NCBI GenBank assembly: GCA_035504095.1
Contig: DATJSN010000001.1
Coordinates: 54,519 to 118,518 of the forward strand
Reading direction: 5' to 3'
DNA from: Phycisphaerae bacterium
Lineage (GTDB): Bacteria; Planctomycetota; Phycisphaerae; WQYP01
DNA length: 64,000 bases
Shown here: positions 24,273 through 44,068 of the stretch, one piece after another
Layout of the letters: each line of letters begins with the position of its first letter
How positions within the stretch are numbered: position 1 is the first letter of the stretch
Notes under the pieces: model-generated
Databases searched by the model: none
What the model was told of the DNA's origin: nothing
The model's input: only the letters and a program-made list of their open reading frames with translations
Position numbers and translations under genes: made by a program

Positions 24273-26639
24273 ATGACCAGCGGTATAAATGATTCAAATT
24301 TTGTTTTAGCAACGAAAATATTTATGCCTTGTCGATTTAACATCGGTATCCCGGTGCTTCTGCTGGTCTTTGTTGCAGGCTTCGCTCGAGCCCAATCCAA
24401 CGTGGACTACATCGACCCCATGTTCGGTGCGATTACCGATGTTCCTCGCGACTGGGGTGACGCGGCCGGTAAGACATTTCCCGGCGCCGACACGCCGTTC
24501 GGCCTGGTGCAACTAAGTCCTGATACCATCACCGGTGGGGATAGGGGTTCAGGCTATTCGGCCGACGACAAAACCATTGAAGGTTTCAGTTTTCTGCACA
24601 TGTTGGGTGTAGGATGTTACGGCGACCTTGGTAACCTGCAGGTCATGCCTGAAACCGGACCGCTTATCATCGACCGCACTACGGCAAAAAGCGCATATCA
24701 ACAGAAAAATCAAGTCGCTACCGCCGGCTATTACAGCGTGGTTCTGGACCGTTACCAGGTGAAGACGGAATTGACCGCTGCGCCCCATGCCGGCTTCATT
24801 CGTTTTACTTTTCCAGCTTCGGTTTCCAGTTATATTAAATTCGATCTCGCTCGTCGCATCGGCAAGCTCGCCGACTCTCATTCCACGGCTCAATTCATAC
24901 ATCAGTTGGATGCTTATACCGTGGAAGGTTGGATATACTGCGACCCCAGCAGCGGTGGATACGGTTGTTTTCAACGCGTTTCGCACTATACCGTTTATTT
25001 CTACATGAAATTCCATGATCCGATTAAATCATTCGGTATATGGGATGGCCAGGATGTTTCGCGCAGTCTTACGGAACTGAACGGCAAGAATTCCGGTTTT
25101 TTCATTGAGTTTCCTACTACGCAGGGGCAGCAGGTCCTGGTTAAAGCAGGCATTTCTTTTGTGAGTATGGATGGCGCTCGCGCCAATCTTTTGCATGACA
25201 TTCCGGGTTGGGACTTTGACGCCGTTCACCAACAGGCACGAGCGCTTTGGGCCAGCGCCATCTCCAGAATAGATGTCGAAGGCGGTTCTGACGCAGACAG
25301 ACGGATTTTTTACTCGTCGCTTTATCAATCAATGATCGATCCGCGCAATATTGTAGATGTGAATGGTTACTACGCCAGCTCGGATGGCAAGCCACACAAG
25401 GCTAACGGATTTATCGTTCGCAGCATTTTTAGTGGCTGGGACGTATACCGCGCCGAATTCCCGCTCCAGAACCTGATCAATCGTAGCATGGTTAATGATG
25501 AAATTAATACGCTGATGCAATTAACCCAACAGGGTGACGTAAAGGGTCTTGCCCGCTGGGAATTGCTGGGTATAGACACAGGCGAGATGGTGGGCGATCC
25601 GGCCATTTCCATTATTGCCAATGCCTATCTGCAGGGAATTCGTGGTTACGATGTGCAGAAAGCCTATCAACTCTGTCGCGCCGTAGCGCTGGGGCCGGCC
25701 GATCAATCGAATCGCGTTGATTTTAACGATTGGATCAAGCACGGCTATTGCATGGGAAAACTGTCTATCTCCGCAACGCTCGACAATTCCTATGATGACT
25801 ACTGCCTGGCGCAGTTTGCTCAAGCACTTGGAAAGACCGACGATGCCGCTCAATTGTATAAATCCGCGCAAAATTACCGCAACATCTTTGATTCCAATAT
25901 CCAATGGTTTCACGGCCGCACTGTCGACGGTAATTTAATTCCCTGGCAGGGTTTCACGACATTTGGTCAGGGCTGTATCGAAAGCACTCCGGGACAGGAG
26001 GGTTGGTACGTGCCGCAGGATGTGCAGGGTTTAATCAATTTATTGGGCGGCCGGGACAAATTCGTCGCCCGGCTCAATGAAATGTTTGAGAAAACGACTC
26101 CGGCGATGATGGTGCAGTGGAATAATTATTACAATATCTCCAACGAAAACGTCGAGCAATGTGCGTTCATGTTCACTTATGCAGGCGCGCCTTGGCTTAC
26201 GCAGAAATGGTCCCGTTATACTTGCTCTACCGCATACAAGACTGGCCCATACGGTCTGCCTGGCAATGACGATGAAGGAGAATTATCCGCTTGGTATGTA
26301 CTGGCCGCTTCTGGTTTTTATCCCGTGTGTCCCTGCAGCAACGTTTATATCCTGGGTAGTCCGGTCTTCTCCCGGGTGACTTTCCATCTTGACTCAGCAT
26401 ATGCCGGTGGAGGAAAAACATTCAGCATCGTCGCTAAGAATAATTCCCCGGTCAATATCTATATCCAGTCGGCCCAGCTTGATGGAACGCCGCTCAAGCG
26501 CGCCTGGATCACCTATCAGGAAATTTCCAATGGCGGCACACTGGTACTCCAAATGGGGCCCACTCCCAATAAAACCTGGGGTTCTGATCCGCAAGACGCG
26601 CCGCTGTCGCTTTCCATGCCGCTACAAAAGCTGAACTGA
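24273..26639 (+). CDS. Secreted glycoside hydrolase, GH92-like (putative alpha-mannosidase family)
   Basis: Signal peptide. 'KTFPGADTPFGLVQLSPDT' and 'GFSFLHMLGVGCYGDLGN' resemble the GH92 N-terminal signatures. Confidence 0.45.
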   Translation: MTSGINDSNFVLATKIFMPCRFNIGIPVLLLVFVAGFARAQSNVDYIDPMFGAITDVPRDWGDAAGKTFPGADTPFGLVQLSPDTITGGDRGSGYSADDKTIEGFSFLHMLGVGCYGDLGNLQVMPETGPLIIDRTTAKSAYQQKNQVATAGYYSVVLDRYQVKTELTAAPHAGFIRFTFPASVSSYIKFDLARRIGKLADSHSTAQFIHQLDAYTVEGWIYCDPSSGGYGCFQRVSHYTVYFYMKFHDPIKSFGIWDGQDVSRSLTELNGKNSGFFIEFPTTQGQQVLVKAGISFVSMDGARANLLHDIPGWDFDAVHQQARALWASAISRIDVEGGSDADRRIFYSSLYQSMIDPRNIVDVNGYYASSDGKPHKANGFIVRSIFSGWDVYRAEFPLQNLINRSMVNDEINTLMQLTQQGDVKGLARWELLGIDTGEMVGDPAISIIANAYLQGIRGYDVQKAYQLCRAVALGPADQSNRVDFNDWIKHGYCMGKLSISATLDNSYDDYCLAQFAQALGKTDDAAQLYKSAQNYRNIFDSNIQWFHGRTVDGNLIPWQGFTTFGQGCIESTPGQEGWYVPQDVQGLINLLGGRDKFVARLNEMFEKTTPAMMVQWNNYYNISNENVEQCAFMFTYAGAPWLTQKWSRYTCSTAYKTGPYGLPGNDDEGELSAWYVLAASGFYPVCPCSNVYILGSPVFSRVTFHLDSAYAGGGKTFSIVAKNNSPVNIYIQSAQLDGTPLKRAWITYQEISNGGTLVLQMGPTPNKTWGSDPQDAPLSLSMPLQKLN

Positions 26640-27502: not shown

Positions 27503-28411
27503 TCATTGTGTCTTGACGCTGGTATCCGGACAAGTAAAGTCCAGATCGAAAATGACGGATACCCGATTGTCAGCCTTAATAAGACCAAAAAACGCGGAAG
27601 GCGGAATAATTCCATAGTCACTCATGAGTACGTCGAATTTCGACCAGACATAAAAATGCCCATAAACATCCCGTTGCACAAACATATTTGTCAAAAGTGA
27701 TCGTTGCACGCCGGCGAGGGTCAGTTTTCCTAAGACGAGCAAATCCAATTCCGGCCGGCCGTTGGCATCCCACTGGATTTGAGCCCGCTTTAGCTGTTCG
27801 AAGATATAATCGATGGCGGGATTCCGCTGAGCATTCAAGGCATCATGTAAATCGTGGTCACGAGCGGCGTTATCACTGCGCAAAGACACGACCGGCAATG
27901 ACAACGCACCGCTCGGCGGATCGTGCAACGTTGAGGTCGCTGGGAAATCGGCAGCAGCAATTGCAACCGATTTAGCGGCGTTGTTTCCCGCGGCGTCATC
28001 CTGGTTCGGAGCCTGAGGAAGATGATTGAACCAACTCTCGAGCTTAGAACCGGAAACAGCGAGGATCACCTGGCCCTGAACCTGGGTGCTGCGGCTATAC
28101 CATGAACCTATGGTCGCCGTGCCATTAAGTTCCACATAGCTGTCAGGACTTATCACAAAATGCAAAGGCGTTTTCTGGGCGTTGAAGTCGACCACCAACG
28201 GTTTGGAAACTTCCACCTGTGCACCCTGGGGTTGGGCGGGTGGATCGCTGCACGCCGGCAGTAACAGAGCGATCAACAGGCAGGGCAGACTCAGTCCGAA
28301 GGAGGCAAAACGTGGTTTACGTGGACGTTGTGGACAGCGGTGATTATCTGACGTGCAATCAACGCAAAACCGCGAATGACCGATTTCGGGCTGGAAAGTT
28401 CCTTGACTCAT
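27503..28411 (-). CDS. YceI-like domain lipoprotein
   Basis: Lipobox 'LLPAC'. 'RDHDLHDALNAQRNPAIDYIF' resembles the YceI core. Confidence 0.55.
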   Translation of the reverse strand: MSQGTFQPEIGHSRFCVDCTSDNHRCPQRPRKPRFASFGLSLPCLLIALLLPACSDPPAQPQGAQVEVSKPLVVDFNAQKTPLHFVISPDSYVELNGTATIGSWYSRSTQVQGQVILAVSGSKLESWFNHLPQAPNQDDAAGNNAAKSVAIAAADFPATSTLHDPPSGALSLPVVSLRSDNAARDHDLHDALNAQRNPAIDYIFEQLKRAQIQWDANGRPELDLLVLGKLTLAGVQRSLLTNMFVQRDVYGHFYVWSKFDVLMSDYGIIPPSAFFGLIKADNRVSVIFDLDFTCPDTSVKTQ

Positions 28412-29112
28412 TTTCCTGCATCAGATGCTGAAGTTGTCAGTTGCCAGGTCGCGGTCACGGTGATCGCGTCTCCGGATTTAATTATGCCTAACATCGCCGT
28501 TGGAGGCTGCACGCCAAAGTCAGTCATTTTCAGGTTGGCGCTGGTGCTAATGGTCAAACTAGTATTATCCTGATGTGTTATAGCAAGTTCCAGAGATGTT
28601 TTCTGCGCTACGCCATTAACCGTCAGATTGCCAGTGGTATCAAAAACAAAGACATTATTTTGGCCATTCGGGGCAGGTTTCAAGGTCGCTTTAGTCAGTT
28701 GATATGTAATCGTTGGATGCTGACTAGCATTCAGGGTGCCGTACATCGTGGAATCCATGCCCCCGCCTTCCGAGCTTTTGAGTGTGTAGACGGGGATGGT
28801 CAGTTGAATCGACTGCAGGCTTATGGGATTTGGGCCTGTGGTAGTCCATTCTCCCGACGTAGTCACATTGCCGCTGACTGTATTGCCCTGGGCGGACCAA
28901 TCGTGCAGTGTTGAGGTTCCTTTGATGGTGACATTGCCGGATGAAGCAGTGAATGTTGTGCCCTGCGGTGCGGACGCCGCAATCGAGGCAGCGCCCGCAA
29001 ATGTAATAACCAGGATAGCGAGTGCGGATACTCCAACTCCGCGCCAGGCCGCCACCTGACGGCCTGGCGAAGTAAGGAGGTGGTTGTGAAGAGCCTTAAA
29101 CAAGAAACACAT
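28408..29112 (-). CDS. YceI-like domain protein, secreted
   Basis: 'TIKGTSTLHDWSAQGNTVSGNV', 'MDSTMYGTLNASQHPTITYQL' and 'KMTDFGVQPP' resemble YceI family blocks. Overlaps the downstream YceI gene by 4 nt. Confidence 0.5.
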   Translation of the reverse strand: MCFLFKALHNHLLTSPGRQVAAWRGVGVSALAILVITFAGAASIAASAPQGTTFTASSGNVTIKGTSTLHDWSAQGNTVSGNVTTSGEWTTTGPNPISLQSIQLTIPVYTLKSSEGGGMDSTMYGTLNASQHPTITYQLTKATLKPAPNGQNNVFVFDTTGNLTVNGVAQKTSLELAITHQDNTSLTISTSANLKMTDFGVQPPTAMLGIIKSGDAITVTATWQLTTSASDAGK

Positions 29113-29125
29113 GTTCTGACTCCAT

Positions 29126-30787
29126 TTAAAAGCCGAAGGCGATCTCAGCAGTCACACCGCTGAAGCGTGGATTGTCGGAGGCGACAACACCGCTCACCAT
29201 ACCGGTGTCGGGGGCAAAGTTATAATACTGCTGATAGACGTACTCTACTTTGGTGAGAATACTCTTGGTCAGCCAGTAGCCGCCGCCAACCTGAACGCGT
29301 CCGACCCAGCCATTGGTGTCGACGCCATGAACAGCACCGGCATAAGCAAAACTATATTGTGCCGCCACATACAATGGAGCGGTGATATGGTAAGTCGCCA
29401 TGGCCTGCCCATAAAGCCACCGTTCGTCGTAGGCGGAGTCCTGGGTCCATCCGACATTTCCATACATTTCCCACGGCCAGTGGTTCCAGGTTATATCACC
29501 CTGATAAGCCTGAACATCGAGTCCGGCTTCAGGTGTGATCTGGCCGCCATCATCACCGGCATTGAAAATGCCGTTATAAGGTTCGCCACTGCGTGTGGAG
29601 GCATACAGATCCGTGATCTGATTATCGGTAGCGAGATCTTCGGCGTTAGCAGTGCCTCCGAGGTCGCAATAGTATACGGAAGCCGATAGCCGTAAATCAT
29701 TGCCGATATAGCCCCAAACTTTGCCGTGAACAGCAGGATTGCTGCCATAATCAAAGTAGCCGGTAGTAGTGCCGTTGCTAAATCCAGCCAGCCAGTATAT
29801 GGGACCTTTGACGGAGTAGAGTTCGAAACCGATTTGTTCTGCGCTGGGATCCACCACGGCGTTTCCAATCAATGGGTTAAGCTCAACGAAAGCGTTGTTC
29901 GACCGGTGGAAGTTTTGATCACCGAAGTCGATGTCAAATGCACCGGCTTTGAGATTGATATAGTTAAAGATATCTCCAATTGGACCGCCGGCGAAAGGAG
30001 GGGGCAATTGTTTAATGATCAAATAACCCTGGTCGCCATACGTCGTGCTGGGGTGCCCAACGCTGGATAGGTACAAATCGAAGAAGACATCCAATTTCCC
30101 GGGAATGGTTGCCAGAAAATCGAGATTGCCATAGGCCGTTTGGAAGCCCGGATCTAAACCAGGATACTCTACTGCGGGCATTGGAGGAGTGTGATAAGCG
30201 GCTTGCTGGGTGAGTGCCTGATAACGGCCGACGGTTTGCACGCCTATGTAAAATCGCATGTCCCCGAGCTGGCCTATCTGCATGTTCATATCAGGCCGAA
30301 TGTGTGAGGGATTCTGGTTTTCGAAAGGCGAAAAATAGTTGATGCCAGTTGGAGGAGTAAACATGTTCTGAAACGTCTCGGAAATGTTATTATCGGTAGG
30401 ATGTTCGGCAAGGTCCGCCGAAATCGTTTCGGAGTTGGACATGACCTCTTTGTAAATCGAATCAATGGCTTTGGCCTGGGCCTCGGCCGTGGCCTGAGCT
30501 GTGGCCTGGGATTCCGCTGTCGTGGCATTTTGCGTTTTTAGAACGGCGATCTGCTGTTCCAGGCTTGCCTCCGTAGCCTGGCTGGCGGCCTGGTCTTTTT
30601 TGAGAGCGGCCAACTGCTGCGCCATTGCCTGCATCTCGGCTTGTACTGCTGTGTTGCTGGTTGTTGTGGTGGTTGCGGCTGAAGTTGAGCTTGAATTTGC
30701 AGCGGCGGTATCGGCCCATAATGCCGGCACCGGCAAAGTTACGGCTGCAAGTGCGATACACATAGCCATTTTTTGTTTGAATGTCAT
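29126..30787 (-). CDS. Outer-membrane beta-barrel (porin-like) protein with an N-terminal coiled coil
   Basis: Signal peptide. Ala/Gln-rich heptad segment 'AVQAEMQAMAQQLAALKKDQAASQ...'. Gly/Tyr-rich alternating strands. C-terminal '...AEIAFGF' ends in Phe as in OMP beta-barrels. Confidence 0.5.
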   Translation of the reverse strand: MTFKQKMAMCIALAAVTLPVPALWADTAAANSSSTSAATTTTTSNTAVQAEMQAMAQQLAALKKDQAASQATEASLEQQIAVLKTQNATTAESQATAQATAEAQAKAIDSIYKEVMSNSETISADLAEHPTDNNISETFQNMFTPPTGINYFSPFENQNPSHIRPDMNMQIGQLGDMRFYIGVQTVGRYQALTQQAAYHTPPMPAVEYPGLDPGFQTAYGNLDFLATIPGKLDVFFDLYLSSVGHPSTTYGDQGYLIIKQLPPPFAGGPIGDIFNYINLKAGAFDIDFGDQNFHRSNNAFVELNPLIGNAVVDPSAEQIGFELYSVKGPIYWLAGFSNGTTTGYFDYGSNPAVHGKVWGYIGNDLRLSASVYYCDLGGTANAEDLATDNQITDLYASTRSGEPYNGIFNAGDDGGQITPEAGLDVQAYQGDITWNHWPWEMYGNVGWTQDSAYDERWLYGQAMATYHITAPLYVAAQYSFAYAGAVHGVDTNGWVGRVQVGGGYWLTKSILTKVEYVYQQYYNFAPDTGMVSGVVASDNPRFSGVTAEIAFGF

Positions 30788-31503: not shown

Positions 31504-32649
31504 CTAGCCTTTTCGGCCCAGACGGAACGAATGCTCGCGGCCAATCGTGCAGGTCACCATGGAGCCTCCGCCTTTGCGGGGCATGACCGCAAAGGTTCCG
31601 CCGATGACCCTGGCTCGATAATGCATGGTCTGAAGTCCCATACCCGCCGCGGGCGGTTTGTTTCGCCCGCTGTCTGCAGGTCCCTGCCTGACACTATCGG
31701 CCGCTGCTTCGGACATTCCCTTTCCGTTATCAGCTACGGAAAGGACAATGAATCCGCTATTTTCGGTCAGATTGATCTGGACATCACTGGCTTTGCCGTG
31801 CCGTATGGCATTGCTTACGGCCTCCTGAGCGATACGATAAAGATGCGTCGCTGCTGCGTCGCCGCGCACCCGGACCTTGCGGTCCCATTGAAAGGTGCAG
31901 CTTATGCTGAACGATTCGGTGACTTTGACCGCCAGATTTTCCAACGCCGCGGACAGCCCGCCGGCTTTGAGATCGACGGGATTAAGTCCATGGGCCAATC
32001 GACGAGCCTGACCGGCCGCTTCGCGGACCATTGCAGCCAGTTTCGCCATCGACTCTTTATCCGAATCGGCAGGCAGGTTTCGCGCGACGGCTTCTATACC
32101 GAAGGCGATGCCGATCAGGTCTTGGCATAGTCCATCGTGCAAATCCTGGCCGATGCGGCGCTGTTCATTGGCGGCGGCTTCCAGAATCTGTCGTTCCAAC
32201 CGTCGTCGCCCTGTCAGATCGTGTATGATGCCGGTGAATAACCTCTGGTCCTTGAGCCTGACCTCACTGACCGACAGATGCATGGGGAATGTCGTGCCGT
32301 TTTTATGGAGTCCGATCACTTCGCGGCCAATGCCAATGATCTTGGCCCGTCCGGTTCGACAATAATTGCGGATATAACCGTCATGTTCGCCGTGGAACGG
32401 CTCGGGCATCAGCCAGCTGACGTTTTTGCCTACGAGTTCGGCTGAGGAATATCCAAAGAGCTTTTCGGTGGCGGCGTTGGCGGATTGGATCATGCCGCGT
32501 TCGTCGATGGTGATGATCGCATCGGTCGCTGTATCCAATATCGCCTGGAGCAATTGCACACTTTGGTGGTGAACTTCTTCGGCTTTTTTACGTTTTGCAA
32601 CGCTGTGGGAATCAGCCGGTCCCCGCTGAGTTTTTTTCAAAATCGGCAT
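31504..32649 (-). CDS. Cytoplasmic PAS-domain sensor histidine kinase (HisKA_3 type)
   Basis: PAS domain 'LLQAILDTATDAIITIDERGMIQSANAATEKLFGY'. H-box 'QRRIGQDLHDGLCQDL'. HATPase 'LSVADNGKGM'. No TM segment. Confidence 0.8.
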   Translation of the reverse strand: MPILKKTQRGPADSHSVAKRKKAEEVHHQSVQLLQAILDTATDAIITIDERGMIQSANAATEKLFGYSSAELVGKNVSWLMPEPFHGEHDGYIRNYCRTGRAKIIGIGREVIGLHKNGTTFPMHLSVSEVRLKDQRLFTGIIHDLTGRRRLERQILEAAANEQRRIGQDLHDGLCQDLIGIAFGIEAVARNLPADSDKESMAKLAAMVREAAGQARRLAHGLNPVDLKAGGLSAALENLAVKVTESFSISCTFQWDRKVRVRGDAAATHLYRIAQEAVSNAIRHGKASDVQINLTENSGFIVLSVADNGKGMSEAAADSVRQGPADSGRNKPPAAGMGLQTMHYRARVIGGTFAVMPRKGGGSMVTCTIGREHSFRLGRKG

Positions 32650-32718: not shown

Positions 32719-33570
32719 TCATTTCTGAAAATCAGTGGCTAGCGTCACATCGCGCCAGGTTTCGATTTCTTTGCTTAGGGAATTTATTTTTGTCGTCGCA
32801 CGCTGGTAGGCCAGAGCGCCCAGCAACAGATGCAATGGCGGATTTTTGCTGGTGACCGCGTCAATAATGGCTTTGGCGCCGCGCGCCGGATCACCGGCCT
32901 GCACGCCTGCGTTTTCTTTTTGATAATTCAGCGTTTTTTCGGTGATCTGCTGATAATCCGGAAAACGCTTTTCAACCATCGCCAGCGACTCGCCGAGAAA
33001 GTCGGTGCGAAATGGGCCCGGTTCAACGATCGTGACGCCAATGCCCAGCGGGGCAACCTCCAGAGCCAAAGCTTCGGAGAGGCCTTCAATCGCGAACTTC
33101 GTGGCGTTGTAAATTCCCCAGCCGGGCAGTCCCACTAAACCGCCTATGGATGAGAGATTCACGATGTGCCCCCGGCGCTCGCGGCGCATGTGGGGCAGCA
33201 CGGCACGGGTTACGCGTAACAGGCCAAAGACGTTGGTCTCAAAGATTCTGGTAATTTCGGCGTCGCTGGCGCCTTCGAGTGCACCAAGCAAACCATAACC
33301 GGCGTTATTAATTAATACATCGATCCGGCCGAACCGCTGGATTGCCGAATCGACGGTTGCCGCAATTTGGGTGGGGTTGTCGAGGTCCATGGCCGCAGTA
33401 TGCAGGCGGTCCCCGGCATCCGCGAAAGCAGCCCGTACTTTTTCCGGCGACCGCGAAGTGGCCACGACGCAATCACCGCGATCCAGCGCAGCGCGGACAA
33501 GCTCACGGCCAAATCCCTGGGAAGTCCCGGTGATAAACCATGTGCGGCTATTTGAATTGTCTGCTGGCAT
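32719..33570 (-). CDS. Short-chain dehydrogenase/reductase (SDR) family oxidoreductase
   Basis: 'ITGTSQGFG' TGxxxGxG motif, 'NNAGYG', and 'YNATKFAIEGL' YxxxK motif. Confidence 0.85.
   Translation of the reverse strand: MPADNSNSRTWFITGTSQGFGRELVRAALDRGDCVVATSRSPEKVRAAFADAGDRLHTAAMDLDNPTQIAATVDSAIQRFGRIDVLINNAGYGLLGALEGASDAEITRIFETNVFGLLRVTRAVLPHMRRERRGHIVNLSSIGGLVGLPGWGIYNATKFAIEGLSEALALEVAPLGIGVTIVEPGPFRTDFLGESLAMVEKRFPDYQQITEKTLNYQKENAGVQAGDPARGAKAIIDAVTSKNPPLHLLLGALAYQRATTKINSLSKEIETWRDVTLATDFQK
32728..32861. repeat. Second copy of the 134-bp direct repeat (3' end of the intact SDR gene)
   Basis: Direct alignment to 26649-26782 with about 7 mismatches. Confidence 0.8.
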
Positions 33571-33717: not shown

Positions 33718-34377
33718 GTGGTGACAATATGCCTGAGAAATTTTATGAACCCATTTTCGTGGATTAAATATTCGCTGCACCTTATCCGAGAGCGATATTT
33801 GCCATCTTACATCGTGATCAATTTGCTTTTTTATGGCTGCATCGCGCTGGGAATGGTCTTGATTATGGTTCTACCGAGTCTTCGGGGCTCGACACAGCAA
33901 TCCGTGAAGGAGGCTTTAAATGGACCGGTTTTGGCTCCCGTGCAAAAAATTTACATCAGCGGCAATGTGGTTGCCGCCGCTGCAATTACGTTTGGAGTAA
34001 ATCTGATTCTCGCGACAGCCATGGCGCTCTCGCTGCCGTCGCTGTTTATTCCATTTATTGGAATAGCTATCGGGATGTTACGAGGGCTCTTTTGGGGGCT
34101 GGTATTTGGACCGGCGCCAAACGGCATGTTTGGCCTGCTGGCCACCCATTGGCCGGTGATGGTGCTGGAAGGGCAGGGGTACGTGCTGGGGATGCTCGCC
34201 GTTTATATCCATGGAAAAGGGATACTGCGGCCGGCGAGCGTCGACGCGACGGGCTTTTGGCAGGGATACCGGCGCGGATTCGTTGAATCCATGCGCATGT
34301 ATCCATTAATCGCGCTGGTGCTGGCGATCTCCGCCATCTACGAGGCGGCGGAGGTCATTTATCTAATGCATCATTGA
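33718..34377 (+). CDS. Polytopic membrane protein, hypothetical (SpoIIM/DUF95-like topology)
   Basis: Five to six TM helices. Sits directly upstream of the ECF sigma gene. Confidence 0.4.
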   Translation: MVTICLRNFMNPFSWIKYSLHLIRERYLPSYIVINLLFYGCIALGMVLIMVLPSLRGSTQQSVKEALNGPVLAPVQKIYISGNVVAAAAITFGVNLILATAMALSLPSLFIPFIGIAIGMLRGLFWGLVFGPAPNGMFGLLATHWPVMVLEGQGYVLGMLAVYIHGKGILRPASVDATGFWQGYRRGFVESMRMYPLIALVLAISAIYEAAEVIYLMHH

Positions 34378-34480
34378 TGAACAAATATTCGCGATATCAT
34401 AAAAACTATTTACGAAGATTTTGTCACACGTACCGGCCCGGAAACGACTAGTTTGCGGAGTCTTTGCTAAGGAGCCGGAT

Positions 34481-35956
34481 ATGACAACCATGCAACTGCC
34501 CAACACGCAAATAAGCGACGCCGAACTGGTGATCGGCTGCCGTAGCGGCAACCGTGAGGCCTTTGGCCATATTGTGCGGCGCTACCAAGGGATGGTCAGT
34601 GGGTTGATCTATGCCGACTGTGGGGACCTGGAACGCAGTGAAGATGTGGCTCAGGAAACGTTTATCTCTGCGTGGAGAAATCTGGGCGAACTCCGCGAAC
34701 CGGCGAAACTGGCCGGCTGGCTTTGTCGGATCGCACGAAACCGTCTGGTGGACCTGACACGAAATAACGCCCGCCATGAGGCTCTGATCGATCAAGTCGC
34801 GGAGCATCAGCGAACCACTACGGAGGCTTATCCGGAACAGGGCGTACTGTCGGATGAAGAAAAAGAATTGCTCTGGCGGACGCTTTCGGCGATTCCGCAG
34901 CCATATCGCGAAACACTGGTGCTCTATTACCGCCAGGGACAATCCACCGCCGAAGTGGCGGCGGCGACGCAGACAACGGAGATCACCGTTCGCCAGCGCT
35001 TGGGGCGCGGGCGGCAAATGCTGCGCGAACAGGTCAACGCCATGGTTGAACGGCAGATTTTGCGTTCGGCGCCGGGACCGGCATTTACGGTTGCGGTCGT
35101 GAGTGCATTGCCGGCGGCGATGGCTCCCACGGTAGCAGGCTTTGGCGCGGCGGCCAAAGGATCGGCGATGGCCAAGGGGACTAGCTGGCTTTTTTTACTG
35201 ACGGCGTGGATGGTTCCGATCCTGGCGCTTTTGACCATGGTCGCCGGAACGTGGCAAACCCTCCGCAACGCCAAGACGTCCGGATTGCGGCGGCTTTTCG
35301 GCTTCTGGTGGGTCATGATGTGGGTACTGGTCATAGGTTGGATAGTCGCATTCAACCTGCTGGTTGCACTGGGAGAATATCAGCATTGGAGTTACCAGGC
35401 TTTTGTAATCATGGAGTCGGCAATGGTCTGTCTTTACGGCGTGGCTGTTACCGGCCTGGCGGCGTGGCTTAAACTGGCCGCCCGAACCACATGGATAAGA
35501 GAAGGATTGCCCAATAATCCCGAACTGCTTCCAAGGCCGAAACTGGGATTCTGGATGCGGTTGCTGGTTTTCGCAGGTCCAACTGCGGCGGGTTTATCAT
35601 GGATGATTGAGATGGCGTTGCGAGCCGGAGACCATCTTTCGGCCGGCATTGTAGCAGCGGTCATCGGAGTCATTTGCCTGTTGAGCGCCTTTCAGAAGCG
35701 TGACCACAAGAAATGGCCCGATCCGGTACAGTCCATGGCGGGATATTTTTCATTGCTGGTTGTTGTGATGCTGGTGATGCTGAACTGGCGGTTGCGTATG
35801 TGGGTCGCAGGGCATGACGGCGTTTCCATCAGTCAGATACAGGGGGAGTTGCCGCTGTGGCCCATCAATTTATTTGCTGTTGTTTTGTTCGTCTGGATGG
35901 CGGCATTGATCAGGTTCACGAAGCGGCCGGGGCAGGAAGGAGGGAATAGGGAATAG
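34481..35956 (+). CDS. ECF (sigma-70 family) sigma factor fused to a C-terminal polytopic membrane domain
   Basis: RBS AAGGAG before the ATG. Region 2 'VAQETFISAWRNL'. Region 4 'STAEVAAATQTTEITVRQRLGRGRQML'. About 8 TM helices follow through the C-terminus. Confidence 0.7.
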   Translation: MTTMQLPNTQISDAELVIGCRSGNREAFGHIVRRYQGMVSGLIYADCGDLERSEDVAQETFISAWRNLGELREPAKLAGWLCRIARNRLVDLTRNNARHEALIDQVAEHQRTTTEAYPEQGVLSDEEKELLWRTLSAIPQPYRETLVLYYRQGQSTAEVAAATQTTEITVRQRLGRGRQMLREQVNAMVERQILRSAPGPAFTVAVVSALPAAMAPTVAGFGAAAKGSAMAKGTSWLFLLTAWMVPILALLTMVAGTWQTLRNAKTSGLRRLFGFWWVMMWVLVIGWIVAFNLLVALGEYQHWSYQAFVIMESAMVCLYGVAVTGLAAWLKLAARTTWIREGLPNNPELLPRPKLGFWMRLLVFAGPTAAGLSWMIEMALRAGDHLSAGIVAAVIGVICLLSAFQKRDHKKWPDPVQSMAGYFSLLVVVMLVMLNWRLRMWVAGHDGVSISQIQGELPLWPINLFAVVLFVWMAALIRFTKRPGQEGGNRE

Positions 35957-36035: not shown

Positions 36036-36071
36036 AAAAACCGCCGGGTACAACCCGGCGGTTTGTATTTT
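36036..36071. terminator. Bidirectional intrinsic terminator between the convergent ECF-sigma and rpsI genes
   Basis: Hairpin 'CCGCCGGGT-ACAA-CCCGGCGG' flanked by an A-run (5') and 'TTTGTATTTT' (3'). Confidence 0.6.
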
Positions 36072-37912: not shown

Positions 37913-40900
37913 TTATATCGACGGCTCGGCCCCGATGGTTCCCACCAAATGTTTGACATATTCCGGATCGCTCACCCGGGCAAATTGAGATTCGGCTTCG
38001 GCAAGCCTGGCTTGCATTTCCAAATGGCCGCTTCCACTTTCACTGCCCGATTCGTCGATAAAGGCCTGCACGCTTTGAATGTGCCGTTTCCATAGGGCAA
38101 TGTCGCGCTCTTGTTTGGTCTTCAGCCGGTCGTGATACCACTGGCTGCTGAGCAAATAATCACGGGTAAACATGGCGCGAATATCGGGGTGATGAACGTC
38201 TTTACCCTCATAATTGCCGTGGGCCATGATGTGCAAGAGCGCCTTGAGCGGAGGGCAGGCCGTTTCGACTGAACCATCCTCAAAATATCCCAAGGCCACG
38301 CGCTGCTGGGTTTGCACAATGTTCATAATGCCGTCGACATAAACATCCATACTTTGACTTTCAGGCTTGAGCATGGCCAAATCAAAAATGCGGGCTGGAT
38401 TGTCAAAAATTCGGCCGAGGAACGTACGCATGAACTTGGCAGTGATGCGATAGCCGAGACGGCTGGCGGGCACCGGACCGTCCTTGTAAAGAAAATCATG
38501 AAGCTTTTCCAAATGGCCATTGGTAATCAGAAATTCCGGCTCGCGTTCGTGAGGATGCAAACGGCACCATAGTTCCGGGATCAGCAGGCTGATGTCGTGA
38601 TCGACACGGCAATTCGGGCCGACATAACCAGCGGCGGTGGAAAATCCACCCAGACCAGTGAGTATGTAGCTGACCAGCGCGGCGTTGAGATCGGCGGTGG
38701 TTTGCAGGGCATTAAAGGGCCCTTTGGTCATGGCGCCTTCGCTGCCAGCGCCGGTGGTAGAAGGACTTTTTCCGGTGAGGCTGGAAATAAAATCCATGAA
38801 CAGTTCAGGCAATTCCTGGTAATGAATAGGGTTAAATACAGCCAGAGCACGTATGCCGGATTCGGGATCGGGCGGATTATTGCGCCGCCCTAGCAAAACT
38901 GCGTGAACAGGAAAGGCGATGGTGGTTGTCAACGGCAGCGCTCGCGCCAGGCGGACGCCTATCTGGGCGACATAAGTGTCGAGCGGTTTGGCCAGGTCGG
39001 TGCGGAATTGCAAATAGCGCGGATTTTTTGATGGCTTACCGCCAATAAGCCGGGGATGGGCGGACGAAACCACATAACCATCGCCGGCGTTGGCGGCCTG
39101 GGTGAGCAATTCTTTCATTGGAGGCGTGTAGCCGTCGAATTCGGTGATACGTCCGACAATTTCTCGTATTGCATGTGTGTCGAGCGGTTCGAAATTAGAG
39201 AGAAAGTTGTCTTTTTGCGCCAGGTCCGACTCGGTCTGCTTATCCAGGCCGGGGTGAATGGCGTCATCAGGGCGCTGGAAGAGCCGTTGTTCAACGTTGG
39301 TCACCAGCTTCAGGCTCGGTCCGGACAGGCCGAACGGTTTGGAATGGATCCAGGAAACCGGCAGGGTAACCGAAGCGGAGATGTCGTCTTCCATCTGGAT
39401 TTTGGCGGCCGGGAAAAAATCCTGGCGGACTTTAAACGTGCGCCACGCTCCATCGGGCAGCAGGCCGACGCGCAAATAGGTGCCGCCGACTTTACGGTTG
39501 TCCATCTTGAGTTCATGGCCCTGTTCGCCGTTGATGATGTCGACGGAAAAATGTTTGCGCCAGTCGTCGCCCCATTCCCGTTTGTAAAGGCGCTTGATCA
39601 GAAACACCAGCGCCAGAATGTCGCTGTGAATTGAACTGAGCCAGTGGTTGTACTCATCGGTGTAATCAGCAGTGGGGGTGAGCAGTTTGATCACGCTGCC
39701 CAGCGACCGCTCCAGACTCAAAATCGGACGGCTGGGTATTTGATCGTAATCGTGCGGCGCTTTGCCCGGTTTCCAACGAACGCTGTGATCTTTGAGCAGT
39801 ATTGCTTCAACCTGGTCCAGATCGTGCTGCAGATTCCCCACATAAATCGGGCCGTAGATCATGTAATCAGAAAGACTTTTGCTGATTTCGCTTTTGCCGC
39901 CGCCGCTGACCGTACATGGTTTGTGGCAGAAAACGCCTTCCGCGGAAGTTACAACGAGGCGAAAACGACCGGTTCCCGGATGCCGGCTCAGATAGACTTT
40001 CTGGCCGGACGGTGTCAGGTAAATATTGTCTGCCAGCAGGGGCAGGCTCTGCTCTTTGTCGTCGGTTTTCCATTGGATTTGCAGTGAGTGTAGATCCATG
40101 TGGGCGTCTTCGGGCAGATAAATAACATTGGGATGCAGTTTGTCCACGGCATAACCGGTGGGCGAAACGTCCATGATCGGGGCGTAGTCGCGAACCACAT
40201 CGGCAAAGGTCCGCCGATTCCAATATTTTTCATGCTGCACAAATTCATTGCCCAGGCTGTAGCTGGGATAGGCTACTGCGCCGCCGGCGTGTTCTTCTTC
40301 AGCGTTGCCCATCAGGTTGGCGGCAAAACTGATCTGAGTTTTAACTTCCTTTTTGCAATAACCGTAATAATTGTCAGCGATCAGGGTAACTATAACGCCC
40401 GCGGAACTGCGGCAGCAGACTTTGAACGCGGAGCCGCCGTTATATAGTTCATCCGGAGTTTTCCAGCACATGCCGTCGCGGCGCTGCCGCTCCGTGGCGT
40501 CTTTAAACTCTGGCAGGCCGAGTTGTTTTTTGGTCAGGCTGACCAGGTGCGGTGCCAGGATGACACAGCCCGTGTGCCCGGTCCAGTGATAAACGTCCAG
40601 GCCGGCGTCGTTTTCCGGCAATACAGGATCACCGGCGTTGCCGAAAATCGATTCGACAAAGTCCAGATTGCTTACGAGGCTGCCAGGTGCAAAGAAGCGG
40701 CACTCCATGGTTTTTTGCGGGCTGGTGGCGGGAATTTCCGGAACGACAATGGGCCGGAGCAATAATGAACAGAAAATTTCCACCGGGTGCGCGGCGTCGG
40801 CCGTATAGGGCAGCAATAAAAACTGGCGCGGTGGATTAACCGCGTGGCGGAACAAGGCTGCAAAAACGTGCGCGGAGACCGCGATTTTGTCCGCCGGAAC

Positions 40901-41362
40901 CGGCAGGCCGCAGTCCGCGATGTGGAACGTTCCCTGCGTGGTGCGCCGGTCGCTGCGCGGATTGTGCAATACGCCGTTGCGCACGCGATAACTTGTAAGC
41001 AGATTGCTTTCAAAATGATCACGACCTTCAGGAAATGAAAGCTCCCGTGACAGTCCCGGTTCATCGAGGCTCAGCGTGGACGACGGCAGGCGCAATGGTT
41101 CTCGAAGATTCAGTGGCGCAAATAATTCGGCGAGAAAGGTTTCGATGCGGCGGTCGGCCGGACAACGGTAATGGCGGAGCAGTAGGCTCTTCTGGCGGAA
41201 ATTAGCCAAAAGACCGGAGGCAAGATGTTCCAGTCCGTCGCCCTGAGTGTTTTGCTCATCGGATGTAAAACCGAGCGCCTGAAACTTCAGACGGATAAAG
41301 CGGTCGATGGCGGCGCGACCATTGGCGGCGGTGGGGCTTTTTTGAGTACCGACGTGCGACAT
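37913..41362 (-). CDS. Large (1149 aa) cytoplasmic protein of unknown function
   Basis: Uninterrupted 3.45 kb ORF. No signal peptide or TM segment. No motif I can assign. Co-directional with the methyltransferase and the S41 protease genes. Confidence 0.6.
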   Translation of the reverse strand: MSHVGTQKSPTAANGRAAIDRFIRLKFQALGFTSDEQNTQGDGLEHLASGLLANFRQKSLLLRHYRCPADRRIETFLAELFAPLNLREPLRLPSSTLSLDEPGLSRELSFPEGRDHFESNLLTSYRVRNGVLHNPRSDRRTTQGTFHIADCGLPVPADKIAVSAHVFAALFRHAVNPPRQFLLLPYTADAAHPVEIFCSLLLRPIVVPEIPATSPQKTMECRFFAPGSLVSNLDFVESIFGNAGDPVLPENDAGLDVYHWTGHTGCVILAPHLVSLTKKQLGLPEFKDATERQRRDGMCWKTPDELYNGGSAFKVCCRSSAGVIVTLIADNYYGYCKKEVKTQISFAANLMGNAEEEHAGGAVAYPSYSLGNEFVQHEKYWNRRTFADVVRDYAPIMDVSPTGYAVDKLHPNVIYLPEDAHMDLHSLQIQWKTDDKEQSLPLLADNIYLTPSGQKVYLSRHPGTGRFRLVVTSAEGVFCHKPCTVSGGGKSEISKSLSDYMIYGPIYVGNLQHDLDQVEAILLKDHSVRWKPGKAPHDYDQIPSRPILSLERSLGSVIKLLTPTADYTDEYNHWLSSIHSDILALVFLIKRLYKREWGDDWRKHFSVDIINGEQGHELKMDNRKVGGTYLRVGLLPDGAWRTFKVRQDFFPAAKIQMEDDISASVTLPVSWIHSKPFGLSGPSLKLVTNVEQRLFQRPDDAIHPGLDKQTESDLAQKDNFLSNFEPLDTHAIREIVGRITEFDGYTPPMKELLTQAANAGDGYVVSSAHPRLIGGKPSKNPRYLQFRTDLAKPLDTYVAQIGVRLARALPLTTTIAFPVHAVLLGRRNNPPDPESGIRALAVFNPIHYQELPELFMDFISSLTGKSPSTTGAGSEGAMTKGPFNALQTTADLNAALVSYILTGLGGFSTAAGYVGPNCRVDHDISLLIPELWCRLHPHEREPEFLITNGHLEKLHDFLYKDGPVPASRLGYRITAKFMRTFLGRIFDNPARIFDLAMLKPESQSMDVYVDGIMNIVQTQQRVALGYFEDGSVETACPPLKALLHIMAHGNYEGKDVHHPDIRAMFTRDYLLSSQWYHDRLKTKQERDIALWKRHIQSVQAFIDESGSESGSGHLEMQARLAEAESQFARVSDPEYVKHLVGTIGAEPSI

Positions 41363-41743: not shown

Positions 41744-44068
41744 TTAGTTCGAATCCGTTTGCACCAGTTGCAGGCGCATCAGCATTAAAGCAGTATCCAA
41801 CTGGGTATCGAACGTTTCCTCTCCCCCCGGACCGGTTGGCTGAGTTGCCGGCCGGGTGGTGGGAGCAGTATTTTTACCAGGAATAATGTCGTTGGCCAGC
41901 CAGGTTATCTCAAGACGATCCAATTGTCCCGGAGAAAACGGAACCCTGACATCCGGTTGCACGCCCCATTTAACGGCATAAGGCTGGCGTTGAATACTCT
42001 CGCCGTTGGGCAGGTAGTAGTTGGCCATGGTCAATTTCATCATGGCGGTTTGGTCATCGTCGAGGAAAATCTGGTTCTGTACGAGTCCCTTGCCGAAGCT
42101 CTGGTGACCGACGATCAGCGCGCGATGTAAATCGTGCATGGCGCCGCTGAAAATTTCCGAGGCGCTGGCACTGTTCTGATTGATCAGAAGAATCATCGGT
42201 ATATCGGGCGGCAAAACCGGCGCGCCGTCCGCGGATTGAACATCCAATGGGTCGCTGCGTCCGCGAGTGGACACGATGGTCCCTTCGGTGAGGAACATGT
42301 CACAGATGCGGATACAGGTTTCCAGTAAGCCGCCGGGATTATCCCGCAGGTCAATGATGATACCCCGAACGTGCTGTTGCATGAGCACGTCCAAAACCGA
42401 GAGCAATTCGTCCGCGGTGTCGCCCTGGAACTGTATGATGTGAATGTAGGCGATGCCATATTGGGGATCGATCATATAATTCCAGTCGTTGGTTGATGGA
42501 TCGCGGGAAATACCGGTTATGGAAACTTCGTGAATTTCGGCGCGTTTTAAAGGCATGATAATCAGATTGGGATTTGTACCCCGCCGGATACCCAGCGTAA
42601 CCATCGTGCCGGATTTACCGGTGATTTCATCGACCGCCTGGTCGACCGTGATGCCCAGAGTGCTTTTGCCATCCACGGTGGCGATGATGTCGCCGGGCTG
42701 AATGCCGGCTTCGTAAGCCGGCGAGCCGCTCAACGGGGTTACGACGGATAACCAGCCGTTGCGTATTTCGATCTGAATACCTACTCCGCTGAAACTTCCC
42801 TGAATCTGCTTCATGAACTCGGCCAATTCGCTGGGCCAGAAAACTTCGGAAAACGGATCCAGTTCGCTCATGGCGCCGTCGGTGAATTCCTTGACCAGAA
42901 CGATGACGGGAATATTCACCGTTTGCATGTCGCTGCGCACAAGACTCGTCCACATGTCGATAAGATCATTAGAGTTCATCGGTGTGGAAGATTCCGCCAC
43001 GGCGGTCTGGTTATCAATTTCGGCGAGAAATTGCGCGCGCTGCACGGGATCGTTAAGACCGCTGAAGCTGTCCGCCAAAGTGGGGGTGTTCACCAGCAGC
43101 CGCAAAGCGGTCAGGCCGCCGGTGGCCAGCTTGTTGTAACTAATCGCCTTGACGTAATAATCAAACGTTTGTTCGAGCGCCTCGAACATCATATCTTCGC
43201 GTATACCCTCGAGCGTGGTCTGCCATGTGGGGAAATTCGGCATTTGCGGATGAAAAGCATCCTGATAGTTCAGTGGTACATGCGACGCACCGATGGTAGC
43301 GGAAGGCTGGGAAGTCGGGGGCTTGTTACCCGGATGAACGGCGCTGGGTTGAGTGGACGGCTGAGTGGTTTGGGAAACGGACTGATCGAAGCTTTCCTGC
43401 ATCGCATAAAGCTGGGACGGCGTATATGTACTCAGCATGGTAATGCGGCTGGTGATCTGCTGAAGCTGATCGTGGAAACGCATGGAAATCGAGTAAATCG
43501 AGTTCAGAGTGTCATAAAGTTCAAACTCTTCGAGCCAATGTTGATTGGCATCATCGGAGGCGGCCTGGGCGGCTATTTTGTCCGTGATATCTTTTACCCA
43601 GAAAAGCTGCAAAAAGGCTGACTGATCCGGCGCCGCTTCATACGCGGCGTATAATTCCCCGGCAGCACCGATGTAATCATTCTTTTTGATGCTACCCTGG
43701 GCCGCCTGAGAGGCTTTGGTGAATAGTTTTTGCGCATCAGCAGCCTGCTGTTGCATCACCTGGACATATTCTTTTCGCCATTGATCGATCTGTGTTGTCA
43801 TCGGATCATCGCCCGGCGGGGGGGTAAGCGCTGCCAGGCCAACGATGTCCTGCATGCGGACCATTGAACCCACTTTTTCCAGGTAACCGGTCGCATTAAG
43901 CGTTGAATCCGGTGCGACGGACTGCGGGCTGGATACGGGCCATGCCGCGGAGGGAGCCAGGAGGCAGGCCACAAAAAAAACAATACCGGCTGAACTACGC
44001 AGGAGAAACGAACGAGAAATCATCAAAAACACCAATCCGGAAAGAACCAGGTAAAGCACAGATGGCAC
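41744..44068 (-). CDS. Carboxyl-terminal (tail-specific) protease, S41 family, with a PDZ domain and a long N-terminal extension
   Basis: PDZ 'SPAYEAGIQPGDIIATVDGKS'. S41 core 'IIDLRDNPGGL'. Catalytic Ser in 'NQNSASASEIF' and Lys in 'SFGKGLVQ'. Confidence 0.8.
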   Translation of the reverse strand: MPSVLYLVLSGLVFLMISRSFLLRSSAGIVFFVACLLAPSAAWPVSSPQSVAPDSTLNATGYLEKVGSMVRMQDIVGLAALTPPPGDDPMTTQIDQWRKEYVQVMQQQAADAQKLFTKASQAAQGSIKKNDYIGAAGELYAAYEAAPDQSAFLQLFWVKDITDKIAAQAASDDANQHWLEEFELYDTLNSIYSISMRFHDQLQQITSRITMLSTYTPSQLYAMQESFDQSVSQTTQPSTQPSAVHPGNKPPTSQPSATIGASHVPLNYQDAFHPQMPNFPTWQTTLEGIREDMMFEALEQTFDYYVKAISYNKLATGGLTALRLLVNTPTLADSFSGLNDPVQRAQFLAEIDNQTAVAESSTPMNSNDLIDMWTSLVRSDMQTVNIPVIVLVKEFTDGAMSELDPFSEVFWPSELAEFMKQIQGSFSGVGIQIEIRNGWLSVVTPLSGSPAYEAGIQPGDIIATVDGKSTLGITVDQAVDEITGKSGTMVTLGIRRGTNPNLIIMPLKRAEIHEVSITGISRDPSTNDWNYMIDPQYGIAYIHIIQFQGDTADELLSVLDVLMQQHVRGIIIDLRDNPGGLLETCIRICDMFLTEGTIVSTRGRSDPLDVQSADGAPVLPPDIPMILLINQNSASASEIFSGAMHDLHRALIVGHQSFGKGLVQNQIFLDDDQTAMMKLTMANYYLPNGESIQRQPYAVKWGVQPDVRVPFSPGQLDRLEITWLANDIIPGKNTAPTTRPATQPTGPGGEETFDTQLDTALMLMRLQLVQTDSN

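Follow-up and report, generated by a model that had tools for sequence, protein, structure and literature searches.

The question raised by this locus is what becomes of a sigma factor that is built into a membrane protein. Within a 64,000-nucleotide stretch of a Phycisphaerae bacterium genome (contig DATJSN010000001.1; this whole stretch is called the window below), one forward-strand gene encodes a 491-residue protein that begins as an extracytoplasmic function (ECF) sigma factor and ends as a polytopic membrane protein. We find that the gene is real and that its product unites, in a single chain, an alternative sigma factor and a membrane domain with about eight helices. The sections of sequence on the two sides of the fusion, and above all the short junction between them, provide the basis for a proposal on how the sigma factor might be held back and set free.

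The sigma core is intact and, judged from its sequence, looks functional. The 491-residue product matches the Pfam families Sigma70_r2 (PF04542) at residues 31-98 (2e-13) and Sigma70_r4_2 (PF08281) at residues 129-181 (2e-9), and it scores 77 bits against the NCBIfam model TIGR02937 (sigma70-ECF) for a cut-off of 42.9; no NCBIfam equivalog cut-off is reached. With sigma2 and sigma4 present and sigma3 and sigma1.1 absent, the protein belongs to the ECF (group 4) sigma-70 family, and the nearest solved structures to its core are ECF sigma factors of the AlgU/RpoE, SigW and SigH types (E about 1e-18). The last helix of sigma4 spans residues 167-196 in the AlphaFold2 model. A cysteine of sigma2, C82, is kept in 98% of the 109 members of a non-redundant family alignment, on which the conservation and charge counts given below also rest, and C47 is common as well. 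A disulfide between sigma2 and sigma4 of the kind proposed for ECF57 was considered and found not applicable, as both conserved cysteines lie within sigma2.

Beyond sigma4 the chain continues, without a stop codon, for about 300 residues, and a Kyte-Doolittle profile places eight hydrophobic segments between residues 200 and 482. Residues 190-491 match no Pfam or NCBIfam family. An AlphaFold2 model of the C-terminal 304 residues, computed from a 27-sequence alignment (mean predicted local distance difference test score, pLDDT, 81; predicted template modelling score, pTM, 0.72; the full-length model reaches a pTM of 0.50), contains seven long and confident helices at residues 234-263, 267-300, 305-341, 357-381, 385-404, 415-446 and 460-480, together with a short helix at 450-456 and a short, low-confidence one at 200-209. 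Residues 201-234 have a pLDDT below 50, and the first transmembrane segment (TM1) is not packed confidently on the bundle that the other seven form. This bundle presents almost no extramembrane mass, and comparison with Pfam families, PDB sequences and PDB folds gave nothing significant for it. Pfam, hydropathy and AlphaFold2 bear out both the coordinates and the description in an earlier note on this DNA, which had read the gene as an ECF sigma factor fused to a polytopic membrane domain; the protein is membrane-tethered, one of the two possibilities offered there.

The same note had proposed alignment with orthologs as a check for a frameshift, since a sequencing or assembly error that joins two separate genes would give the same picture. 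A homolog search of a 5.8-billion-protein collection returned 253 matches, more than 100 of them full-length (460-510 residues, 35-50% identity, 96-100% coverage); they derive from different assemblies and sequencing centres and, where named, from Phycisphaerae or Tepidisphaeraceae. Loci were counted in the best 80 of 562 relatives, retrieved with a full-length alignment query from one genome per GTDB species. These 80 include Phycisphaerales, Tepidisphaeraceae and Pirellulales and are mostly Verrucomicrobiia, Opitutia and Limisphaerales, so that the range first given for such fusions, the Planctomycetes, is correct as far as it goes and too narrow: most of the relatives found belong to the Verrucomicrobiota. 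In 78 of these loci the sigma reading frame stays open over more than 250 codons, and at least five hydrophobic helices are encoded 3' of sigma4 in 75. One of the two interrupted relatives (L051) has an in-frame stop within sigma4.2 (about 4550), past which the same frame continues through the membrane domain; the other (L019) has a frameshift within the membrane domain (about 4745). Decayed genes or errors of long-read assembly are the probable cause in both cases, rather than an arrangement as two genes, and neither lesion lies at a gene boundary. No conserved split between the sigma and membrane parts is seen. As these two loci are the only interruptions among the 80, and no support for an artefact was found against more than 100 independent full-length homologs, the fusion is genuine and the odds of an artefact are negligible.

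Searches from the opposite end gave the same answer. A profile of the membrane domain only, compared with 1.84 billion cluster representatives, recovered 1,074 proteins at E<=1e-3, and in the full-length matches listed the membrane domain begins at about residue 185-195. None of the 150 best matches listed, of about 1,070 clusters, has the membrane domain without a sigma factor. Entries of about 300 residues have the appearance of membrane-only proteins; all 12 that were inspected begin inside sigma region 4.2 (...RQRLxRGRxMLRE...) and are therefore truncated gene calls.

The distribution of charge gives the orientation of the protein in the membrane. Lysine plus arginine (K+R) averages 14.5 for the predicted cytoplasmic segments (the stretch before TM1, the loops L2-3, L4-5 and L6-7, and the C-terminal tail) vs 4.8 for the predicted periplasmic loops. 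An eight-span topology with both termini inside fits these counts only if the weak TM1 (residues 200-222) spans the membrane, and the number of helices originally proposed, eight, is therefore right, as seven confident helices plus one weak helix whose span the positive-inside rule requires. The predicted topology is thus eight spans, N-in and C-in, with the sigma part in the cytoplasm and close to the membrane. The positions outside the sigma regions with at least 85% identity are P198, F202, V206, A209, L210, P211, K226, P246, W374, D384, N435, R437, W441 and P458; those beyond TM2 all fall at predicted periplasmic helix ends or in predicted periplasmic loops. The cytoplasmic loops are short (10-26 residues) and poorly conserved, and none of their positions attains this level.

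Conservation outside the sigma regions is highest at the junction, which consists of the weak TM1, similar to the h-region of a signal peptide, and of the small-x-small-K repeats that follow it. F202, V206 and L210 lie on one face of the TM1 helix, next to an invariant P211, and the consensus of the TM1-TM2 loop is G-A-x-A-K-G-S-A-A-A-K-G; a small-x-small triplet followed by K or R is found in this loop in 90 of the 109 members. The P-x3-F-x3-V-x3-LP motif is present in 79 of the 80 loci and small-x-small-K/R after it in 75. The conservation is not confined to one kind of membrane domain. In 60 partial-homology loci, defined by a tblastn match of less than about 430 of the 491 residues and in many cases ending near residue 212, the reading frames run on into polytopic domains for a total of 510-1,030 residues, and they retain the first motif in 59 of 60 cases and the second in 56. 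The conserved unit is therefore the sigma factor with its junction, and the membrane module is exchangeable.

The layout of the junction (R195, a hydrophobic region of about 15 residues containing a proline, and A-x-A followed by K) resembles an internal signal peptide with a site of the signal-peptidase-I type, from which we infer a role as a cleavage site. The same pattern characterizes the Bacillus anti-sigma factors RsiV and RsiP, an N-in membrane segment followed by a small-residue -3/-1 site on the predicted periplasmic side; at the level of sequence it is present and conserved here, and it is of low complexity. The conserved junction suggests that proteolysis frees the sigma part from its membrane anchor. 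The reading that we prefer, to which we assign a probability of roughly 45%, is that of a membrane-anchored pro-sigma factor; RsiV-like cleavage at a first and a second site would set it free, with a seven-helix sensor inside the membrane as the gate.

The proximity of sigma4 to the membrane bears on the possibility that no cleavage is needed. The sigma factor could be active while tethered, in the manner of ToxR or CadC, with RNA polymerase recruited to membrane-proximal DNA and the bundle acting as an allosteric modulator. The intact sigma core, the gene's own conserved promoter (see below) and the lack of an anti-sigma domain are all consistent with this; membrane-integrated transcription activators do exist, CadC among them (10.1101/2020.06.28.176644), and residues 196-234, which are predicted to be flexible, could serve as a tether if TM1 were not stably inserted. 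Against this, the recognition helix of sigma4 runs to about residue 196, only 3-4 residues or so from the hydrophobic segment, and therefore this reading would force the -35 DNA and the beta-flap right up against the bilayer. The positive-inside rule, moreover, needs TM1 inserted and hence the tether short, and activity in the tethered state leaves unexplained why the proline-containing TM1 and the A-x-A-K loop are best conserved across different modules. We regard it as unlikely.

A built-in anti-sigma factor, the other possibility that had been raised for this gene, is not supported in the classical sense. Only about 12 residues separate the end of sigma4 from the first hydrophobic segment, no recognisable domain of the ZAS, RskA or FecR type was detected in the extension (Pfam searches of 27 members gave no zf-HC2, RskA or FecR hits), and the cytoplasmic loops are of the short and variable kind described above. 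A minimal version would dispense with a domain: the cytoplasmic loops of the bundle and the C-terminal tail would bind sigma2 and sigma4 reversibly and without proteolysis and let them go on a conformational change, comparable to what has been proposed for the C-terminal extensions of ECF41 and ECF42. C-terminal extensions do regulate the sigma factor in cis in ECF41, ECF42 and ECF238, and the L4-5 loop (about 22 residues, mean K+R 4.4) and the tail are predicted to face the cytoplasm. Against this, the loops hold no position at 85% identity; related subfamilies swap the membrane module yet keep the junction; and a sigma factor let go by the loops would still be tethered by a linker of about 12 residues. 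Sequestration of this kind is thus improbable in our judgment.

Release of an anchored pro-sigma factor, the reading preferred here, also has to be seen together with the way in which the gene is expressed. The pattern TGTCAC-N15-19-SSACT has one match in the 64-kb window, the promoter-like element of Table 1. When 83 upstream regions were searched de novo for bipartite motifs, 27 of them proved to contain TCAC-N19-ACT, where 0.6 were expected, and 77 of 81 loci have TGTCA[CG], position-locked, in the 140 nucleotides upstream. The consensus reads TTtcTGTCACC-N16-17-G(c)xACTTAT, with the family form TGTCAC(C/A)-N16-17-(C/G)xACT. Ahead of family genes the strict pattern reaches 1.49 per kb, about 88 times its density elsewhere in the same loci (0.017 per kb). 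In 35 loci the ATG lies 39 nucleotides past the T of TGTCAC. The ATG of most Verrucomicrobiota members (upstream regions L007-L086) is only about 10 nucleotides past the -10 element, and their mRNAs would therefore be leaderless or nearly so; in the Phycisphaerae subclade, to which the window belongs, the motif stands at -56 to -59 and is accompanied by a leader of about 30 nucleotides and a Shine-Dalgarno sequence. A promoter held at a fixed position before the family genes implies autoregulation, and by analogy with other ECF groups the sigma gene is probably autoregulated, the TGTCAC element being presumably recognized by this sigma factor itself.

Autoregulation weighs on a further alternative, in which the junction is cut constitutively. 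Signal peptidase would process a polyprotein co-translationally into a sigma factor, once the signal peptide has been cleared, and a separate N-out seven-helix protein at 1:1, and regulation would come later, for example by the seven-helix protein in trans, or be transcriptional only. The n/h/c organisation of the junction, signal-peptide-like with its small-x-small-K, accords with such processing, as do the predicted periplasmic position of the residues past the putative site and the doubt of the curators of ECF263, a catalogued group to which we return below, that its extension has a regulatory role. It is hard to explain on these terms why about 1,070 clusters keep the two parts fused, with no split version among the matches examined, and the conserved residues W374, D384, R437 and W441 lie close to the loop on the predicted periplasmic face, which suggests that the bundle interacts with the loop. 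An autoregulated sigma factor without other regulation would, in addition, run away. For these reasons constitutive processing has, to our mind, a low probability.

In the pro-sigma reading the full-length protein would be inactive because sigma4 is held at the membrane surface. The seven-helix bundle would act as a sensor, within the membrane or at its outer leaflet, and control access to the small-x-small-K site just outside TM1. A signal would lead to a site-1 cut at this site, for which a protease of the signal-peptidase type is the candidate, and TM1 would thereby be parted from the bundle; a site-2 protease of the RseP/RasP type would then cut the proline-containing TM1 and free the sigma factor into the cytoplasm. 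The free sigma factor would transcribe from its own promoter and a further regulon and so amplify its own synthesis, and resynthesis of the fused precursor would restore the off state at a built-in 1:1 stoichiometry. Some observations weigh against this scheme. The small-x-small-K repeats, rich in Ala, Gly and Lys and hence of low complexity, could be conserved for membrane insertion or packing, and lysines are slightly unusual in a loop that is supposedly periplasmic (mean K+R of 1.7 between TM1 and TM2). The promoter motif is common to paralogs, tandem ones included, and another sigma factor could therefore drive the sigma gene. A wider claim, that the family represents a single-chain switch for regulated intramembrane proteolysis and a bacterial counterpart of SREBP, is one that we put forward more tentatively. 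Such a switch would consist of three parts, namely a sigma factor, an internal cleavage module similar to a signal peptide and exchangeable polytopic sensors. Signal peptidase and a site-2 protease would then act on the sigma factor itself, and sensing would take place in the membrane or at its outer face with no classical anti-sigma domain.

This architecture is already catalogued, and the protein is probably a further member of a computationally defined group, ECF263 (ECF classification 2.0, Casas-Pastor et al. 2021, PMC7826278), which has a membrane extension. According to the Supplementary Text of bioRxiv 10.1101/2019.12.11.873521, ECF263 is made up of Proteobacteria (89.8%), Verrucomicrobia (8.16%) and Planctomycetes (2.04%); the extension has five TM helices (about 230 residues) in subgroups s1, s2 and s4 and seven (about 330 residues) in s3, and some extensions, in s2 and s4, are like fatty-acid desaturases. 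The same source gives a cysteine in sigma2, a one-TM anti-sigma factor of the DUF2007 family encoded at -1 in s1 and s2, no adjacent anti-sigma gene in s3, and a predicted promoter TGCAC(A/C)-Xn-CGTC; its curators doubted that the extension is regulatory (10.1101/2019.12.11.873521). The window protein resembles s3 in the number of its helices, the length of its extension and its taxonomic place, and also in having a cysteine in sigma2 (C82 here) and no adjacent anti-sigma gene. The gene at -1 encodes a polytopic protein of about 210 residues and not a DUF2007 anti-sigma factor, which is consistent with s3 or s4 and not with s1 or s2, and FA_desaturase, a feature of some s2 and s4 members, gave no hit at E<=1 in 27 proteins of the present family. 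The promoters, TGCAC(A/C)-Xn-CGTC there and TGTCACA...CGACT in the window, are similar and not identical.

Judged from the published description of the group rather than from its hidden Markov model, the protein is probably of the ECF263 type, subgroup s3. There are differences of scale and kind: the published group is about 90% proteobacterial with five-helix extensions, unlike the seven helices plus a weak eighth, TM1, described here, and the present Planctomycetota-Verrucomicrobiota (PVC) family, with its roughly 1,070 clusters, is far larger than the handful of PVC proteins that the ECF263 percentages imply. A literature search found no experimental study of ECF263, no paper on it beyond the classification paper, and none on a membrane-tethered sigma factor as such. 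This agrees with the initial remark that fused ECF architectures are noted in Planctomycetes and mechanistically undefined, ECF263 having been described only computationally.

Comparison with better-known systems provides insights on what is shared and what is new. Pro-sigmaK of Bacillus sporulation is an inactive, membrane-associated sigma precursor that is activated by SpoIVFB, a protease of the site-2 protease (S2P) family. Here, too, the sigma factor itself would be the membrane-associated precursor; pro-sigmaK differs in being a group-3 sigma factor with a short N-terminal pro-peptide, whereas an ECF sigma factor carries a C-terminal polytopic domain in the present case. The SREBP/SCAP system couples a membrane-tethered transcription factor, released in two steps by a site-1 protease (S1P) and S2P, to a polytopic membrane protein that senses lipid. 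SREBP/SCAP, ToxR and CadC are tethered transcription factors made of unrelated proteins and serve as analogies only, and ToxR and CadC act without release from the membrane.

RsiV-sigmaV and RsiP-sigmaP of Bacillus share with the window protein an N-in membrane segment followed at once by a signal-peptidase-type site that is gated by the sequence after it, a site that is putative here. RsiV (PMC6066255) and RsiP (PMC8844934) are cut at site 1 by signal peptidase, in a gated manner, and at site 2 by RasP. What is cleaved there is an anti-sigma factor, a protein of its own whose ligand-binding domain outside the cytoplasm is large, unlike the present protein, in which the substrate would be the sigma factor itself and the gate a seven-helix bundle; there is no sequence homology between them. 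Hybrids of sigma and anti-sigma factors come closer in organisation. Prc and RseP activate IutY, the ECF243 protein of Pseudomonas putida, and a truncated form of its sigma factor is active constitutively (PMC8999054). IutY and the members of the actinobacterial groups ECF48, ECF52 and ECF53 (e.g. SCO4117) likewise unite sigma factor, TM segments and sensor in one polypeptide. They have an anti-sigma or zinc-finger domain before one or two TM helices and large periplasmic domains, in contrast to the protein described here, which lacks an anti-sigma domain, has eight TM helices and exposes hardly any mass to the periplasm.

The features of the locus are collected in Table 1. The likely start of translation is the ATG at 34481, because AAGGAG stands 6 nucleotides 5' of it and the homologs start at the equivalent MTT...; the alternative in-frame TTG at 34421 is less likely. 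From AATATTCGCGATAT onward the block upstream of the sigma gene is nearly the same as in an 81%-identical ortholog (L002/L003) despite differing upstream genes, the 97 nucleotides 5' of the ATG being almost identical. This sequence falls in the 103-nucleotide gap that separates the sigma gene from the preceding reading frame and that holds its own promoter. Downstream, a hairpin with a perfect 12-bp stem (8 G-C pairs) and T-runs on both strands is common to the sigma gene and the rpsI-rplM operon. With its own promoter and its own terminator the sigma gene is therefore monocistronic.

Table 1. Coordinates, in the numbering of the window, of the sigma-membrane fusion gene, its parts and its flanking elements.
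Feature	Position	Strand	Remarks
Fusion coding sequence (491 aa + stop)	34481..35956	+	ATG 34481, stop codon 35954-35956
Sigma region 2 (aa 31-98), including conserved Cys82	34571..34774	+	Pfam PF04542
Sigma region 4 (aa 129-186)	34865..35038	+	Pfam PF08281; last helix runs on to about aa 196
Junction module (aa 190-233)	35048..35179	+	most conserved non-sigma stretch; E190, P198-x3-F202-x3-V206-x3-L210-P211, then A-A-A-K226-G-S-A-M-A-K232
Seven-helix membrane bundle (aa 234-480, TM2-TM8), predicted	35180..35920	+	conserved W374, D384, N435, R437, W441, P458 on the predicted periplasmic face
Shine-Dalgarno sequence AAGGAG, 6 nt 5' of ATG	34469..34474	+	read from sequence; kept in L002/L003
Conserved upstream block (promoter region and 5' leader of sigma gene)	34384..34480	+	near-identity to 81% ortholog L002/L003
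ECF-type promoter-like element	34422..34449	+	-35 TGTCAC 34422-34427, 17-nt spacer, -10 CGACT 34445-34449
Bidirectional intrinsic terminator between sigma gene and convergent rpsI-rplM	36038..36064	.	hairpin

Beyond the window's single promoter match, for which a regulon search with a position weight matrix (PWM) found no second site in the 64 kb, the PWM turned up only scattered extra sites elsewhere: they precede tandem paralogs and two other genes, of which one codes for a secreted SxxK hydrolase-like protein (L046) and one for a small membrane protein (L073). The tandem paralogs (L017, 5566-7236; L075, 5700-7258) lie directly 3' of another family member, each with its own TGTCAC-type promoter. 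Several metagenome-assembled genomes have multiple family members with near-identical promoters, and cross-talk between paralogs is therefore possible. In L046 the family motif stands 5' of a gene (5705-7068) for a 415-residue secreted SxxK protein, similar to beta-lactamases and penicillin-binding proteins, immediately downstream of the sigma gene; it may be a regulon member and hint at a function in the cell envelope.

The neighbourhood of the sigma gene offers no partner. The 81%-identical ortholog keeps the downstream order of rpsI, rplM, a methyltransferase gene and the gene for an 1150-residue protein, and it has a sulfotransferase gene upstream instead; four more distant loci have unrelated gene contexts. 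Across these five homolog contexts no conserved neighbour and no anti-sigma gene was found, and the 64-kb window contains no other sigma, paralog or anti-sigma gene. The reading frame directly upstream (33718-34377, +) encodes a 219-residue polytopic protein without a Pfam hit; it belongs to a separate family of membrane proteins of about 210 residues, and distant relatives of this family bear the name 'stage II sporulation protein M' (SpoIIM). The earlier note had pointed to this gene, which is indeed there. It is irrelevant to the sigma gene: as a partner or anti-sigma factor it was rejected, being absent beside the 81% ortholog, where the sulfotransferase gene takes its place, and beside all distant homologs examined, and the sigma gene has a promoter of its own.

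Other genes of the window are recorded here for completeness. A 774-residue protease with PDZ and Peptidase_S41 domains (Prc/Ctp-type; 41744-44068, -) is encoded at a distance of about 6 kb from the sigma gene. The IutY hybrid is cut at site 1 by Prc, but nothing was found that links the two genes here. The 1149-residue product of 37913-41362 (-) has no Pfam hit; its 1150-residue L002 ortholog has PF26300 (PEPCK_PPi_lobe_2), and the protein looks like a pyrophosphate-dependent phosphoenolpyruvate carboxykinase. A cytoplasmic PAS-HisKA_3-HATPase histidine kinase (31504-32649, -) appears to be an orphan, the adjacent reading frames holding no response regulator, and a gene for a short-chain dehydrogenase/reductase-type oxidoreductase comes next (32719-33570). 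A 553-residue secreted protein (29126-30787, -), with an Ala/Thr/Gln-rich, coiled-coil-like N-terminal part, an aromatic/Gly-rich C-terminal part and no Pfam family, may be an outer-membrane protein; two YceI-like genes (27503-29112) come after its gene. A squalene-hopene cyclase (51400-53397, -), a GH92 alpha-mannosidase-like protein (24273-26639, +) and a GH20 hexosaminidase-like protein (18083-19963, +) make up a general context of the Phycisphaerae type.

The Planctomycetota and Verrucomicrobiota possess many ECF sigma factors and have almost no genetics. In these two phyla about 1,000 sequence clusters fuse a sigma factor directly to a polytopic membrane domain. What is added here beyond the catalogue is the size of the family and its PVC-wide spread, the eight-TM topology, a precise promoter motif and a junction that is conserved across different membrane modules. 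Should the guess of the ECF263 curators be right and the extension be non-regulatory, the finding amounts to an ordinary annotation; the conservation of the junction across modules argues against that guess. The promoter motif (TGTCAC-N16-17-xxACT) and the junction motif provide concrete experimental handles. If the junction is a site of proteolytic release, the family would represent a new and very compact coupling of a membrane signal to transcription, in which sensor, inhibitor and effector lie in one chain at 1:1 with swappable sensors, and which synthetic biology could find attractive as an orthogonal part.

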